Virus record (IMG/VR): IMGVR_UViG_2529292830_000010
From: a virus
Lineage: Duplodnaviria; Heunggongvirae; Uroviricota; Caudoviricetes
Strand: one strand, 5' to 3'
Length of the DNA: 10,016 bases
The position numbers and the translations under genes are program-made. A model generated the notes under the pieces. It ran no database searches and had not been told where the DNA came from. It saw only the letters and a program-made list of their open reading frames with translations. Below, piece after piece: positions 2-10,016 of the stretch (its first letter is position 1; each line of letters opens with the position of its first letter).

Positions 2-850
2 CAGACGATGCAGGGGCGGGTACTTGATGGTGATTTAATCACTGGATGGGAAAAACGCCAGGTGCTTAAAGAGGACAACGGCAATATTTCGCAAACCGCA
101 AAATCTCCTGCAGAGCGCAAGAGGGCGCAGCGAGAGAGGGAAAGAAAGCGGGAACAAAATGGCGATTGTCACGGCGCGTCACGAAATGTCACGCATATGT
201 CACGACGAGTCACGACAGATAAAGATACAGATAAAGATACAGATCAAGAAGATCAAAACACTATGGTCCATGGCGTAAAAAACGCCACGAACCAGGCAGG
301 GGATGTTCAGACCGTCAATCTTGGTCAGCCAGCAGGCACGACACCGGAAGCCGATTCAGCGTATGCGCTGAAAGCCGATTCGGGCGCTGTGCAGCAGGTG
401 ATGACCGCAAGGCCGGAGCAATCACACCAACTGCAGCAGCCCGAAGCCGATTCCGCCATTCAGCGGGAAGCCGATCGGGTAGTCCCGGAAAACACCGGGC
501 AGTCTGTGGGACGAGTGGATTATCCGGATGTGTTCGAACAGGTCTGGCGGGAGTACCCGTTGCGTGCCGGAGCAAACCCGAAGAAATCCGCTTTCAGTGC
601 CTGGAAGGCCAGATTACGCGAGGGGGTGCCACCAGAGGCCATGCTGGATGGCGTGAGGCGTTACGCAAGATACTTGGCGGCTACCGGGAAAACGGGAACG
701 GAATTTGTTCAGCGAGCGACGACGTTTTTTGGACCGGACCGGAATTTTGAGAACCCCTGGTTGCTCCCGGTAAGCGGCACGAACAACCAGCGTTGTGTGA
801 ATCATATTTCTGAACCGGATAACGAAATTCCGCCGGGCTTCAGGGGGTAA
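2..850 (+). CDS. Phage replication protein with DnaT-like (primosomal protein I) C-terminal domain; probably 5'-partial, continuing upstream of the window (first in-frame ATG at 8)
   Basis: Long ORF in frame 2 with no stop from position 2. C-terminus ...NHISEPDNEIPPGFRG closely matches the recalled E. coli DnaT C-terminus ...VSEPDSQIPPGFRG. Internal PEADSA-type peptide repeats. Iteron-like array inside the gene at 168-214. Confidence 0.7.
   Translation, partial: QTMQGRVLDGDLITGWEKRQVLKEDNGNISQTAKSPAERKRAQRERERKREQNGDCHGASRNVTHMSRRVTTDKDTDKDTDQEDQNTMVHGVKNATNQAGDVQTVNLGQPAGTTPEADSAYALKADSGAVQQVMTARPEQSHQLQQPEADSAIQREADRVVPENTGQSVGRVDYPDVFEQVWREYPLRAGANPKKSAFSAWKARLREGVPPEAMLDGVRRYARYLAATGKTGTEFVQRATTFFGPDRNFENPWLLPVSGTNNQRCVNHISEPDNEIPPGFRG
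168..214. repeat. Five direct GTCACG repeats spaced 10-11 bp apart (iteron-like, candidate origin/initiator binding array)
   Basis: GTCACG at 168, 178, 188, 199 and 209, giving one repeat per helical turn, embedded in the replication gene. Confidence 0.5.
215..253. repeat. A-rich tandem repeat (ACAGATAAAGAT x2 plus a degenerate third copy) directly after the iteron-like array
   Basis: Perfect 12-bp tandem duplication at 215-226 and 227-238, followed by acagatcaagaagat. Encodes TDKDTDKDTDQEDQ. Resembles the A/T-rich unwinding region that follows iterons. Confidence 0.45.
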
Positions 851-3091: not shown

Positions 3092-3151
3092 ATGCGACAC
3101 ATAGAGATTAGCCTCTTACGGACCGAAAGGTCAAGGAGAAGCAGGCTATGA
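3092..3151 (+). CDS. mok-like upstream ORF (19 aa) whose stop overlaps the hok start
   Basis: ATG 3092 with GAGG 8 nt upstream. TGA at 3149-3151 overlaps the hok ATG at 3148-3150. Confidence 0.3.
   Translation: MRHIEISLLRTERSRRSRL
3105..3134 (-). promoter_or_regulatory. Candidate sok antisense promoter (minus strand: -35 TTGACC, 18-bp spacer, -10 TAATCT)
   Basis: Reverse complement of 3129-3134 and 3105-3110. The predicted antisense transcript would start near 3098 and cover the mok start and SD (3079-3094), as expected for Sok. Confidence 0.3.
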
Positions 3152-3303
3152 AGCAGCAAAAGGCGATGTTAATCGCCCTGATCGTCATCTGTTTAACCGT
3201 CATAGTGACGGCACTGGTAACGAGGAAAGACCTCTGCGAGGTACGAATCCGAACCGGCCAGACGGAGGTCGCTGTCTTCACAGTCTACGAACCTGAGGAG
3301 TAA
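3148..3303 (+). CDS. hokD: Hok family type I toxin (51 aa), HokD/RelF-like
   Basis: Translation MKQQKAMLIALIVICLTVIVTALVTRKDLCEVRIRTGQTEVAVFTVYEPEE is near-identical to my recollection of E. coli HokD (RelF). Single TM helix plus the conserved C-terminal Cys-containing periplasmic tail. Confidence 0.85.
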   Translation: MKQQKAMLIALIVICLTVIVTALVTRKDLCEVRIRTGQTEVAVFTVYEPEE

Positions 3304-4041: not shown

Positions 4042-5090
4042 GTGCGGGTATTACTTCGACCTGTTCTGGTACCGGAACTCGGGCTGGTGATCGTTAAGCC
4101 GGGCCGTGAATCCATGCCGGTATTCCACAATACCCGGTTACTGGTGGAGCCGGAACCGAAAAGCATGCGTAATCTGCCGTCCGGGGTCGTTCCTGCCGCT
4201 CGCCAGCCGCTGGTGGAAGACAAAACATTGCTGCCGTTTTTCAGTAACGCACGGGTGATTCGTGCTGCTGGTGGTGCTGGTGCATTGTCTGACTGGCTGT
4301 TGCGCCATATTAAATCCTGCCAGTGGCCACACGGCGATTATCATCACAGCGAAACCGTCATTCACCGTTATGGTACCGGCGCAATGGTGTTGTGCTGGCA
4401 CTGCGACAACCAGCTGCGTGACCAGACATCCGAATCACTCGAGCAACTTGCTCATCAAAACCTGTCAGCATGGATGATTGACGTCATCGGTCACGCAATA
4501 AGCGGTACGCAGGAGCGTGAATTATCTCTGGCTGAATTATCCTGGTGGGCGGTCCGCAATCAGGTGGCGGACGCGCTACCGGAAGCGGTATTACGTCGTT
4601 CGCTGGGGTTGCGTGCGGAAAAATCCGCTCAATGTACCGTGAAAGCGACATCGTACCGGGAGAGCAGACCGCCACCAGCATACTGAAACAGCGCACAAAA
4701 AATCTTGCGCCGCTGCCTCACGCCCACCAGCAACAGAACCCACCACAGGAAAAGACGGTGGTCAGCATTGCCGTTGATCCTGAGTCTCCGGAATCTTTTA
4801 TGAAACGACCTAAACGTCGCCGCTGGGTTAACGAGAAATACACACGCTGGGTGAAGACACAGCCGTGTGCGTGTTGTGGTAAGCCAGCCGACGATCCCCA
4901 TCACCTGATTGGTTATGGTCAGGGCGGAATGGGGACAAAATCTCACGATATTTTCACGCTACCGCTGTGTCGGGAGCATCACAACGAGCTTCATGCGGAT
5001 CCGCTGGCGTTCGAAGAAAAGCATGGTTCTCAGGTTGATTTAATTTTTCGTTTTCTTGATCACGCCTTTGCAACTGGCGTGCTTGGGTAA
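4042..5090 (+). pseudogene. DUF968 (YdfU-like) protein gene split by a frameshift at an A5 run (4619-4623); would encode about 349 aa if repaired
   Basis: Two overlapping ORFs (4042-4686 frame 1, 4545-5090 frame 0) that together match the DUF968 architecture. C-terminal part has the Cys/His-rich motif CACCGKP...HHLIGYG...CREHHNELH. Confidence 0.65.
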
Positions 5091-5473: not shown

Positions 5474-6295
5474 ATGAAACTGGAAGATTTACCGAAATAC
5501 TACTCCCCAAAATCCCCTGGCCTGACCGATGCATCGGCCTCAACGTCAAAAGATGCGCTGAGTATCACTGATGTGATGGCCGCGCAGGGCATGACACAGA
5601 ATCGGGCTGAGATGGGTTTTTCTGCGTTCCTGGGGAAAATGGGCATCAGTATGAATGACAGGGCGCGGGCAACAGAATTACTGGCAGATTATGCACTCAG
5701 TCGGTGCGATCGTGTGGCGGCGTTGAGAAAACTTCCGGCAGAAATAAAACCGGTAGTGATGCGCATTATGGCTTCGTACGCTTTTGAGGATTATGCCCGT
5801 AGCGCAGCGAGTAAAAAGCAGTGCCCTTGTTGCTATGGGGAAAAATTTATTGAAAGCGTAGTTTTTACAAACAAGGTCCAGTATCCGGATGGTAAGCCGC
5901 CGGTATGGGCAAAGTGTACGAAAGGTGTGTATTCGTCTTACTGGGAAGAATGGAAAAAAGTCAGGGAGGTGGTAAAAGTTGCCTGTCCGGAGTGTGGCGG
6001 AAAGGGTGAGGTTTCCACCGCCTGTAAGGATTGCCGTGGGCGTGGTGTCGCCATTCATCGTGAAGAGTCGGTAAAACGTGGTATGCCTGTTATCAGAGAC
6101 TGCCAGCGTTGTGGTGGTCGTGGCTATGAAAGACTACCATCAACGGAGGCATTTAATGCTATATGCGAGGTGACAAACCAGATAACACGCGCGTCATGGG
6201 AAAAAACAGTTAAGAAATTCTATGATGCGCTGGTGACCCGGTTTGATATTGAAGAAGCATGGGCTGAGCGGCAGTTAAAAAAGGTAACTAGGTAA
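5474..6295 (+). CDS. Late-gene antitermination protein Q (large QuuQ/YdfT-type, 273 aa) with DnaJ-like CxxCxGxG zinc-finger motifs
   Basis: Sits immediately upstream of a PR'-like promoter and terminator. Motifs CPECGGKG, CKDCRGRG and CQRCGGRG. Resembles my recollection of E. coli QuuQ (YdfT). Confidence 0.85.
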   Translation: MKLEDLPKYYSPKSPGLTDASASTSKDALSITDVMAAQGMTQNRAEMGFSAFLGKMGISMNDRARATELLADYALSRCDRVAALRKLPAEIKPVVMRIMASYAFEDYARSAASKKQCPCCYGEKFIESVVFTNKVQYPDGKPPVWAKCTKGVYSSYWEEWKKVREVVKVACPECGGKGEVSTACKDCRGRGVAIHREESVKRGMPVIRDCQRCGGRGYERLPSTEAFNAICEVTNQITRASWEKTVKKFYDALVTRFDIEEAWAERQLKKVTR

Positions 6296-6438: not shown

Positions 6439-6514
6439 GGCCCTTTAGCTCAGTGGTGAGAGCGAGCGACTCATAATCGCCAGGTCGCTGGTTCAAATCC
6501 AGCAAGGGCCACCA
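6439..6514 (+). tRNA. tRNA-Ile (anticodon CAU, lysidine-type; ileX/ileZ-like), CCA encoded
   Basis: Cloverleaf folds by hand: acceptor GGCCCTT/AAGGGCC, T-arm GCTGG-TTCAAAT-CCAGC, anticodon loop CTCATAA. Near-identical to recalled E. coli ileX. Confidence 0.9.
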
Positions 6515-6614: not shown

Positions 6615-6688
6615 GCGTTGTTAGCTCAGCCGGACAGAGCAATTGCCTTCTAAGCAATCGGTCACTGGTTCGAATCCAGTACAGCGCG
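6615..6688 (+). tRNA. tRNA-Arg (anticodon UCU)
   Basis: Acceptor GCGTTGT/ACAGCGC, D-arm GCTC...GAGC, anticodon arm ATTGC-CTTCTAA-GCAAT, T-arm ACTGG-TTCGAAT-CCAGT. CCA not encoded. Confidence 0.85.
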
Positions 6689-6801
6689 CTATATTCATTC
6701 TTCCAGATTCCTTCCGGCAGAGCCTTATACTGAAATATACCTGGCTCAGGATATTGTTGAAAATATTTTATGTTTGTCAAAAATAAAAGTTCTGTTAAGT
6801 A

Positions 6802-7602: not shown

Positions 7603-7938
7603 TTATGGACTTTGTTGTTTTAGTCCATAAGGACATATTTGCAGAGTGCAACGGTTATTAAAGCATTCATTCAATACGTTATCTGTATTTGTAGGACATT
7701 CCTGGCTGTTTTTGATTAAATTCCAGAATGTTTTATTGAATGGTACTACGTTGTAAATGGTTACAGGTAGCACTTTGTTATTGAGCATGATACCTGTGTG
7801 AGTCAGTGTAAATATACTTTCAGGAGGTAAGAAAGCATCCGATTGATACCAGATTATTAATTTTATTTTACTCCATATGACTGAAAAAGATATTCCGCAT
7901 GATGGCTGGATAACTGTATCAATCACAATCCACTTCAT
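7603..7938 (-). CDS. Hypothetical moron protein (111 aa), AT-rich, Cys-rich C-terminus
   Basis: Minus-strand ATG (7936-7938) with AGGAAG RBS. The stop is embedded in an 11-bp perfect inverted repeat (7601-7611 / 7622-7632). About 30% GC, unlike the flanking phage genes. Confidence 0.45.
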
Positions 7939-9328: not shown

Positions 9329-9649
9329 ATGAACGCAAAAATCAGATACGGCCTGTCGGCTGCCGTTCTGGCACTGATTGCCGTCGGTGCGCCCGCGCCT
9401 GATATTCTCGACCAGTTTCTGGATGAAAAAGAAGGTAACCACACAACGGCATACCGCGATGGGTCCGGCATCTGGACCATCTGTCGGGGTGCCACGATGG
9501 TGGATGGAAAACCCGTTTTTCCCGGTATGAAACTGTCGAAGGAAAAATGCGACCAGGTCAACGCCATTGAGCGTGATAAGGCGCTGGCATGGGTGGAGCG
9601 CAATATTAAAGTACTACTGACCGAACCACAAAAAGCGGGTATAGCGTAA
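9329..9649 (+). pseudogene. R: SAR endolysin (phage-21 R-like GH24 lysozyme) truncated after about 106 codons by IS insertion
   Basis: N-terminal Ala/Gly-rich SAR segment (YGLSAAVLALIAVGAPAP). Catalytic spacing E-x8-D-x5-T in EGNHTTAYRDGSGIWT. Reading frame ends at a stop formed at the IS boundary (GCG|TAAGCG), roughly 60 codons short of a full lysozyme. Confidence 0.8.
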
Positions 9650-10016
9650 GCGACTCGTCAGAACCGTATTGATATTTACTGAGAGCTCAGATCAACTTTC
9701 CAGGGCAACAGATCGCGTACCCGGTTTGCCGGCCAGTCCTGGATATGTTCAATGACGTAACGCAGCCACTTTTCTGGCTCCACATTGTTCAGACGGCATG
9801 TGCCGATCAGCGAGTACAACACCGCCGCATGTTCACCACCGCTGTCGGAACCCGCGAACATCCAGTTTTTCCGGCCTACGGCCACTCCCCGTAAGGCGTT
9901 CTCTGCGATGTTGTTGTCGATTTCCACCCAGCCATTACTGCAGTACACGTTCAGTGCATCCCACTGTTTCAGCAGGTATGCGAACGCTTTTGCCGTATCT
10001 GAGTGACGCGACAGTG
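9646..10016 (-). mobile_element. IS66-family insertion sequence, one end only (element continues beyond window end)
   Basis: Terminus begins GTAAGCG at 9646 (characteristic IS66-family end) and the element encodes an IS66-type transposase C-terminus on the minus strand. Confidence 0.8.
9676..10016 (-). CDS. IS66-family transposase, C-terminal portion (N-terminus outside window)
   Basis: Minus-strand frame open to the window edge. Translation ...HSDTAKAFAYLLKQWDALNVYCSNGWVEIDNNIAENALRGVAVGRKNWMFAGSDSGGEHAAVLYSLIGTCRLNNVEPEKWLRYVIEHIQDWPANRVRDLLPWKVDLSSQ matches the conserved C-terminal region of IS66 transposases. Confidence 0.85.
   Translation of the reverse strand, partial: LSRHSDTAKAFAYLLKQWDALNVYCSNGWVEIDNNIAENALRGVAVGRKNWMFAGSDSGGEHAAVLYSLIGTCRLNNVEPEKWLRYVIEHIQDWPANRVRDLLPWKVDLSSQ

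Follow-up and report, generated by a model that had tools for sequence, protein, structure and literature searches.

A candidate two-part iteron replication origin within the initiator gene of a Qin-like lambdoid prophage

Introduction

Short GTCACG repeats follow one another at the pitch of the DNA helix inside a gene of an Escherichia coli prophage. Do they mark the place at which the prophage starts its replication, or do they reflect the peptide encoded by the gene in which they reside? The window analysed here is a stretch of DNA of 10,016 bp, which matches the chromosome of E. coli NCCP 13717 with 100% identity. A first-pass annotation, made on the window letters, had proposed that the repeats are a candidate prophage origin organised as that of phage lambda. 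The repeats, the gene which hosts them and the homologous loci of other bacteria and phages have been compared, and the results are described below.

Results

The prophage and its initiator gene

The window belongs to a Qin-like lambdoid prophage, marked to the left by dicB, dicF and ydfABC. The genes follow in the order repressor/cro pair, YdaT/cII-like gene, initiator gene, DUF977/LygF. The copy of the prophage residing in the source genome is decayed. The initiator gene measures 356 codons; the window open reading frame (ORF) spanning positions 2–850 corresponds to the last 282, and the first 221 nt are off-window. Features of the region are listed in Table 1.

Table 1. Position of the initiator gene and of the proposed origin elements in the window
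Feature	Position	Strand	Remarks
Initiator gene, 3' 849 nt (residues 75–356 and stop) of 1071 nt	2..850	+	ORF; PHROG match
Basic-helix region (AERKRAQRERERKRE), residues 100–128	77..163	+	Just before array 2
Iteron array 2 (five direct GTCACG cores)	168..214	+	Proposed initiator-binding sites
AT-rich, purine-rich tract, ACAGATAAAGAT x2.9 then CAAGAAGATCAAAACACT	215..262	+	Proposed DNA unwinding element
Imperfect inverted repeat TGGTCCATGGCGT-AAAAA-ACGCCACGAACCA	264..294	.	13-pair stem, far side of AT-rich tract
C-terminal tail ...NHISEPDNEIPPGFRG, residues 333–356	776..847	+	Shared with host DnaT C-terminus

The initiator matches phrog_3729, "replication initiation protein", from end to end (E = 1e-257). 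It is named "phage replisome organizer" by NCBI, and is labelled "hypothetical protein" by RefSeq in the source genome. The protein is widespread. The cluster formed at 90% identity includes 5786 sequences, most of them of E. coli or Shigella origin, and the family defined by the N-terminal domain (N-domain) is made of 2305 clusters at 50% identity. Phages Tritos, Evi and vB_EcoS-640R1 carry the initiator at 95–98% identity, and in the complete genome of Tritos this is the only recognisable replication gene.

Scanning the full-length initiator against Pfam, with E values up to 1 accepted, retrieved three weak families only, either unrelated or sub-threshold. Phage_rep_org_N (PF09681) stayed below its gathering threshold (12.8 bits vs 23.3, E = 0.12), with residues 5–122 aligned to profile positions 1–118. 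PHROG families of replisome organizers were matched weakly (4e-6 and 2e-4).

An AlphaFold model built on 40 homologues features a confident N-domain (residues 1–95; helices 4–14, 16–25, 29–45, 56–63, 67–77, and a hairpin at 78–87), followed by a basic helix (110–126), a disordered linker (128–243, pLDDT < 50), a helical C-terminal domain (C-domain, 245–330) and a flexible tail. No fold-level relative of the C-domain was found when its profile was compared with PDB and Pfam; a designed repeat protein was matched, and the match was taken as spurious. The codons which host the repeats, for residues 130–146, open the disordered linker set between the folded regions 1–95 and 245–330. The array is therefore inside the initiator ORF, between the N-terminal part and the C-terminal domain, and its assignment to the low-complexity linker of a replication gene, as initially proposed, is borne out by the model. 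The same linker includes a true in-frame duplication of 96 bp (344–379 and 440–475), in which four AAGCCGAT octamers share one codon phase; one unit of this duplication is absent from a 324-aa E. coli variant.

GTCACG repeats cluster in two arrays

A position search located five GTCACG cores on the + strand, starting at 168, 178, 188, 199 and 209, exactly where the first-pass annotation had placed them. Their spacings are 10, 10, 11 and 10 bp, and the cores are set apart by spacers of 4–5 nt of low information content. The whole array, called array 2, fits within 47 bp, is read in frame 2 of the ORF 2–850, and codes for C130–T146 of the 356-aa protein. An array was regarded as in helical register when at least three direct repeats were so spaced, and array 2 has five.

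Elsewhere in the 10,016-bp window GTCACG was found at 4417 (minus strand) and 4490 (plus strand) only. The comparison of the count with chance, which had been suggested as a check, gave a divided answer: the total (7 copies vs 3.5 expected) is unremarkable, but the clustering is remarkable. In 1000 dinucleotide-preserving shuffles of the window, the longest run of a single hexamer at 10–11 bp intervals consisted of 2 units in 984 cases and of 3 units in one; chains of 4 or 5 units were absent from all 1000. No Rfam family matches the array region. Inside array 2 the minus strand gave a weak promoter-like match, which is at chance level and was rejected.

A second group of repeats, called array 1, is located in the off-window 5' part of the gene, about 260 bp upstream of array 2, with about 210–250 bp separating the two. 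It includes GTCACG at gene offsets 129, 139 and 160, i.e. 93, 83 and 62 nt upstream of window position 1, and GTCACA at offset 149, 73 nt upstream. The same part of the gene hosts an inverted copy, CGTGAC, at offset 192, 30 nt upstream of window position 1, and the whole group extends from 93 to 25 nt upstream. Array 1 encodes the end of helix 29–45 and the loop 43–55 of the N-domain. The genome of phage Tritos (46 kb) carries 25 GTCACG copies vs about 21 expected, and these cluster only at the two arrays of the initiator gene.

The arrays are conserved as DNA

Homologous loci were sought in one genome per species by means of peptide patterns located at residues 5–23, outside the arrays, and 66 loci were obtained. 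A scan of viral contigs for the N-domain gave 80 loci, which were 99–100% identical copies and unusable for measuring conservation, and the species-level set was used instead. Loci in this set are related by descent, and numbers given below hence do not count independent events.

Both GTCACG arrays are present at unchanged offsets in about 25 loci, and nearly no copies were found in the flanks. Hosts include Shigella, Rahnella, Serratia, Aquitalea, Bordetella, Pseudomonas, Acidovorax, Stenotrophomonas, Chromobacterium and Gilvimarinus, among others. In homologues of this class adjacent cores are 10 bp (105 cases) or 11 bp (30 cases) apart, never 9 or 12, and spacer positions carry at most 0.8 bits. 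The inverted CGTGAC at offset 192 is kept in about 15 of the 25 loci.

The peptide encoded by the repeats is not constant. The five cores of array 2 are found in codon phases 1, 2, 0, 2 and 0, and are read as C-H-G, S-R, V-T, S-R and V-T; given the 10/11-nt period and the three codon phases, the array is no peptide repeat. The Pseudomonas phages phita81A and P7869 encode an N-domain 69.5% identical to that of the initiator, followed by an unrelated C-terminal half, and the neighbour gene downstream codes for a primase-helicase. In phita81A, GTCACG is found at offsets 129, 139, 149 and 160, with the inverted copy at 192. Array 2 of this phage has cores starting at 388, 398, 408 and 418, i.e. 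four cores spaced by 10 bp, and CTAGATAAAGATACAGAAGAAGAG comes next. The linker peptide is DDVTQCHAESRNVTLDKD in phita81A, GDCHGASRNVTHMSRRVTTDKD in the window protein.

Synonymous sites tell the same. At conserved residues of 23 GTCACG-class genes, the mean synonymous entropy is 0.21 bits in the cores of array 1 vs 1.52 bits outside (9 codons with the third position in a core, 35 codons outside; Mann-Whitney p = 5e-6). The contrast is repeated in a class of homologues featuring CGAACG cores (0.23 vs 1.34 bits, p = 4e-4). The codon for Arg49 may be CGA, CGC, CGT or CGG when it falls in a spacer, and is CGC in 16 of 16 cases when it falls in a core.

Repeats are thus conserved as DNA beyond what the protein needs. 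The alignment of homologues, advised at the outset, revealed that the hexamer and its 10/11-bp spacing are kept as the peptide, the codon phase and synonymous sites elsewhere change. A peptide kept with loss of the hexamer or of its spacing had been set in advance as evidence against an origin, and the opposite was found across many Proteobacteria. Judged by these alignments, both arrays are shown to be kept by selection on the DNA itself, and the peptide which the array specifies in the linker is best described as a by-product of the DNA element.

An AT-rich tract and a hairpin follow array 2

The presence of a 12-bp tandem duplication and of A-rich DNA next to the array, as first reported, has been confirmed. 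Tandem Repeats Finder identified 2.9 copies of ACAGATAAAGAT at 215–249 (95% matches), and a second repeat search the same three copies at 215–250. GC content reaches its minimum for the gene in a 40-nt window which starts at 219, immediately past array 2; it drops there to 25% vs 55% in the whole gene, and 75% of residues on the + strand are purines. An AT-rich region, a possible unwinding element, thus adjoins the array.

Tracts starting with AGA were found 2–4 nt past the last iteron in about 45 of 53 homologous array-bearing loci. Their purine content is 0.7–1.0 over 30 nt, and they are made of AGATAA, ACAGAT or AGAAGAG repeats. The codon phase of the tract differs among loci, where it is read as DKDK, QIREE or RLDKRR; the tract is thus kept as DNA composition, not as peptide.

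The inverted repeat located on the far side of the tract may fold into a hairpin of -8.7 kcal/mol (DNA parameters). In many homologous loci a hairpin is found at the same relative place, 25–60 nt past the last iteron, and the sequences are unrelated, as in TCTACCCC-TGAC-GGGGTAGA and AATATCACC-TAAC-GGTGATATT. The energy of the best 36-nt window at this place averages -7.7 kcal/mol vs -6.4 elsewhere in the same genes (Mann-Whitney p = 2e-4), and perfect stems of at least 6 bp were found in 51% of loci vs 11% of shuffles. The hairpin is possibly a third origin element, less secure than the arrays and the AT-rich tract.

Iteron classes change along with the initiator

Repeats of distant homologues have been sorted into classes by considering cores of the NNNACG type only, setting aside AGATAA repeats and the purine-rich codons of the basic helix. 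Cores are CGAACG/GAACGC in about 18–20 loci, GTAACG in 6 and GTGACG in 1. Arrays 1 and 2 feature the same core in about 49 of 50 array-bearing loci. Comparable arrays are absent from seven loci (L111, L113, L128, L130, L131, L132, L145).

Protein columns separating the GTCACG and CGAACG classes map in the loop at 45–55, which is encoded by the iterons, and at residues 100–115, which are not. Mutual information with the iteron class is 0.86–0.99 bits for columns 101–115, and 0.71 bits for column 100. The putative winged-helix body (56–95) has no columns among the top-ranked class separators. Residues 100–115 are a candidate specificity determinant, since they separate the iteron classes without being encoded by the iterons.

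The loop 43–55 surrounds an invariant Arg49-Gly50 pair, and reads NVT-RG-H with GTCACG, ATE-RG-RT with CGAACG cores. That this surface loop, written by array 1, helps to read the iteron, so that the binding site would be also the reading element, is a speculative idea to which little credence is given. If true, a change of the iteron would alter its reader in one step, and the self-encoding loop would be an inherent means by which co-resident prophages acquire new origin specificities, independent of one another.

Gene context and the DnaT-like tail

In the 23 GTCACG-class loci examined, with flanks of 1.5 kb at either end, no ORF family other than the initiator is common to all. The gene which follows codes for a lambda-P homologue in E. 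albertii, Gilvimarinus and a Pseudomonas, for a DnaB-type helicase in Stenotrophomonas, and for a primase-helicase in phita81A; in a Serratia locus it gave a weak, sub-threshold Toprim-like match only. No helicase or helicase-loader (P) gene was found in the window prophage, in which DUF977 alone follows the initiator. As indicated by this gene order, the initiator gene is shown to hold the "O" position of a lambdoid early operon. Homology with an E. coli O157 variant, featuring a PF17948 C-domain, stops at residue 144, at the end of array 2; the origin would therefore be the joint of exchangeable modules, as in lambdoid O genes.

The initiator had been credited with a DnaT-like C-terminal domain. 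The likeness holds for the last ~23 residues (ISEPDxEIPPGFRG), and the rest of the C-domain has no DnaT match. The DnaT profile NF002770 aligned to the initiator at profile positions 156–179 only, with 18 bits vs a cut-off of 201. PDB entries 6aep, 2ru8 and 9zbt were matched by the tail only (E = 0.015–0.06), and the likeness to DnaT was again confined to the tail when the C-domain profile was compared with PDB. The motif SEPDxxIPPGFRG is present as ISEPDNEIPPGFRG in the initiator, as VSEPDNHIPPGFRG in 6aep and as VSEPDSQIPPGFRG in 2ru8. The DnaT DNA-binding domain (PF17948) was not found in the initiator by the Pfam scan with E up to 1; sister variants with the same N-domain do carry it. As a candidate motif, the tail might recruit host proteins of replication restart or of helicase loading. 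The contacts made by the extreme C-terminal tail of DnaT are not stated in the DnaT cryo-EM paper (PMC13377028).

Discussion

A probable two-part iteron origin

The GTCACG array is likely to be one half of a two-part iteron replication origin located inside the initiator gene of the prophage itself, and array 2 is very probably the protein-binding half of such an origin. The proposal of a lambda-like prophage origin is supported by the comparison of homologous loci, in which the core and its spacing are kept, and the initiator gene holds the "O" position, next to genes for P-type loaders, DnaB helicases or primase-helicases in other species. That the initiator would be the protein which binds the repeats is supported indirectly, by cores which change with the initiator lineage and by the lack of any other gene common to all loci examined.

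The origin may work as follows. The N-terminal parts of the initiator (the putative winged-helix domain and the basic helix) would bind neighbouring cores next to one another, along a single face of the helix, and bound initiators may bridge arrays 1 and 2. [quoted passage not shown] In relatives of the prophage this could be provided by the neighbour gene, in the form of a lambda-P-type loader, a DnaB helicase or a primase-helicase. For the window prophage, in which no loader or helicase gene is found, a route through host proteins is proposed, possibly via the DnaT-like tail.

Alternative explanations

The arrays might be initiator sites used for autoregulation or copy control, by roadblock, titration or handcuffing, with replication starting elsewhere. 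Two separated arrays resemble the control iterons of plasmids, and array 1 is early in the initiator coding sequence, where bound protein could block transcription. A precedent is given by phage SPP1, in which G38P binds a second, distant site, oriR (PMC5737612). This explanation is nevertheless improbable, though less so than those which follow. The AT-rich purine tract set 2–4 nt past array 2, often along with a hairpin, is what characterises an unwinding site rather than an operator, and the complete Tritos genome has no other cluster of cores, and thus no alternative origin with such sites. Autoregulation and origin roles are compatible with each other.

Sites might be bound by a different protein, of the phage or of the host, acting in packaging, partition or recombination at the module junction. 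The stop of sister-variant homology at the end of array 2 is in line with this possibility, as is the match of the neighbour gene DUF977/LygF with a DNA-binding PHROG. However, among the 23 GTCACG-class loci the initiator is the sole shared gene in the 1.5-kb flanks, and DUF977 is missing from Pseudomonas phages which carry the arrays. A host factor fits poorly with cores which change with the initiator lineage in hosts ranging from Enterobacteria to Burkholderiales and beyond. Binding by another protein is accordingly rated as a distant prospect.

Slightly lower still is the chance that the repeat works at the mRNA level, with GUCACG copies serving, for instance, to bind a translational regulator. 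In favour of such a role, copies in the arrays are all on the coding strand. Against it, the strict 10/11-nt register equals the helical repeat of B-DNA and makes no evident sense for single-stranded RNA, and the inverted CGTGAC at offset 192 is retained in about 15 of 25 loci of the class. No Rfam family was matched, and the AT-rich tract and the replication-module context fit an element working as DNA.

An artefact of coding or of low complexity, a peptide repeat of the linker produced by slippage, or chance is effectively refuted: the region does encode a disordered linker, linkers gather repeats, and this one holds the in-frame 96-bp duplication at 344–475, but a 10/11-nt period in three codon phases is impossible for a peptide repeat, the core is invariant in homologues with different peptides, synonymous sites are frozen inside cores only, no shuffle reached the observed chain, and the 96-bp duplication differs from the array in having all copies in one codon phase.

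Implications

The two-part origin proposed here would assign a concrete candidate origin to a very common replication module. At least four iteron variants appear to change jointly in the two arrays and with the initiator, subject simultaneously to the demands of coding and of binding, and this series makes the evolution of initiator-origin specificity testable by simple swaps. The DnaT-like tail, in a phage devoid of a loader, suggests a testable way in which host helicase loading could be hijacked. The arrays may be used as a marker for annotating origins, and for predicting cross-activation among co-resident prophages. Plasmids carrying arrays could block the phage by titrating its initiator.

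Comparison with known origins

No description of an origin for this initiator family was found in the literature covered, from which subscription journals are mostly excluded. Its parts have counterparts in several known systems.

The closest layout is that of ori-lambda, which resides in the middle part of the O gene. It combines direct repeats, to which the N-terminal part of O binds, with an AT-rich tract located after them, and the number of repeats varies between phages, such as lambda, P27 and 933W (PMC7466680). The candidate origin similarly is in the middle of the initiator gene, has repeats followed by an AT-rich tract, and is made of DNA encoding an inter-domain linker. The C-terminal domain of O pairs with a loader encoded next door, and several relatives of the prophage have a lambda-P neighbour. 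Lambda iterons measure about 19 bp, have internal symmetry, are bound by dimers and lie about two turns apart; cores described here differ in being 6 bp long, asymmetric, and one turn apart. Unlike in lambda, the initiator is no O protein, no O-family match being found in Pfam with E up to 1; the second array resides in the coding sequence of a folded N-domain, and the prophage has no P gene.

In SPP1, oriL is inside gene 38, and consists of AB boxes bound by G38P followed by an AT-rich unwinding element (PMC5737612). Shared traits are the location of the origin in the initiator gene, an initiator without an AAA+ domain, and a second binding region, which is oriR in SPP1 (PMC5737612). In contrast to SPP1, membership in Phage_rep_org_N is not established for the initiator (12.8 vs 23.3 bits), and the second array is in the same gene, at ~260 bp, rather than far away in the genome. 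Unlike the window prophage, SPP1 has genes for a helicase and a loader.

Iterons of plasmids with winged-helix Rep proteins of the RepA/pi/TrfA type are usually 17–22 bp long and intergenic, and the origin of satellite phage P4 has short octamer repeats. The locus differs from RepA/pi/TrfA plasmid origins in having 6-bp cores set within coding sequence, part of which specifies a folded domain, and no relation to Rep_3 or RepA was found by the Pfam scan of the initiator with E up to 1.

In the basal unwinding system of bacterial oriC, double-strand DnaA boxes lie a short and constant distance before a strand-asymmetric A-rich repeat, which is the first DNA to melt. The candidate origin likewise features proposed initiator sites followed by an A-rich, strand-asymmetric repeat, and the likeness to DnaA boxes and DnaA-trios is offered as a lead only. 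The tract has a period of 6 or 12 nt (GATAAA, GATACA), with no clear 3-nt period; it was not adopted as a run of DnaA-trios, as no consistent 3-nt phase fits. Unlike at oriC, the initiator has no AAA+ or DnaA domain.

As far as sequence comparison goes, the layout is a known one, shared with ori-lambda and SPP1 oriL, and the initiator family is different, widespread and so far uncharacterised. By the same comparison, the candidate origin is set apart from both by the 6-bp asymmetric core repeated once per turn, by a second array laid over the codons of a folded domain, and by classes of iterons which co-vary.

Sequences flanking the iterons

Features identified in the window are listed in the table. 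Hairpins are found 25–60 nt past the last iteron in many of the homologous loci L085–L147, and are unrelated in sequence. Often the loop measures 4 nt (e.g., TGAC, TAAC or TATC) and is flanked by CC and GG. The potential to form a hairpin past the AT-rich tract, rather than any given sequence, seems to be conserved. P0140, a 302-aa E. coli initiator variant aligned to window positions ~180–340, carries a deletion which removes iterons 3–5, the AT-rich tract and the linker following it. If the assignment of the origin to this array is right, replication of the P0140 prophage should be impossible.

Features of the prophage region
Feature	Window position	Strand	Remarks
Hairpin	264–294		just past the AT-rich tract
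In-frame 96-bp duplication	344–379 and 440–475		initiator's linker
Initiator tail	776–847		last 14 residues, ISEPDNEIPPGFRG
hokD, type I toxin gene	3148–3303		RefSeq annotation of identical genome
DUF968 (YdfU-like) gene, split	4042–5090		overlapping ORFs 4042–4686 and 4545–5090
tRNA gene, anticodon CAT	6439–6514		Met by ARAGORN, tRNA-Ile in RefSeq
tRNA gene, anticodon TCT (Arg)	6615–6689		
iraM, anti-adapter gene	7603–7938	(-)	RefSeq annotation of identical genome
ISCro1 insertion region	~9647–10016		end of similarity

Each copy of the linker duplication includes two AAGCCGAT octamers, located at 348 and 372, and at 444 and 468; a count of four was reached in 0/200 shuffles. All the octamers are read in a single codon phase, encoding (P)EADS or KADS, and exactly one 32-residue unit of the duplication is missing in a 324-aa E. 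coli initiator variant. The duplication may be a repeated short peptide motif within the disordered linker.

Decay of the prophage and accessory genes

The two DUF968 ORFs match consecutive stretches of the Pfam profile, and the gene is flagged as frameshifted in RefSeq. Similarity to insertion-free E. coli genomes stops at 9647, where the endolysin gene is interrupted in the source genome by ISCro1, an element of the IS66 family; this prophage copy is therefore probably defective for lysis. The Q antiterminator gene (5474–6295) is located upstream of both tRNA genes. hokD and iraM both reside inside the late-early region of the prophage, according to RefSeq.

Modular organization of the initiator

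The same N-domain and iterons are fused to differing C-domains across homologous loci. In the O157-type variant, homology to the initiator ends at residue 144, which corresponds to the end of the array. The gene downstream of the initiator encodes a lambda-P-type loader, a DnaB helicase or a primase-helicase in other loci (L086, L097, L108, L099, L003 and L101, the latter with a weak Toprim-like match); in the window, a DUF977/LygF gene (891–1313) is found alone at this place. The initiator ends in 14 residues (ISEPDNEIPPGFRG) that show near-identity to the extreme C-terminal end of the host primosomal protein DnaT, and no relation to DnaT could be detected in the remainder of the C-domain. 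Such near-identity, being confined to the tail, suggests that a phage lacking a helicase loader mimics a docking motif of its host.
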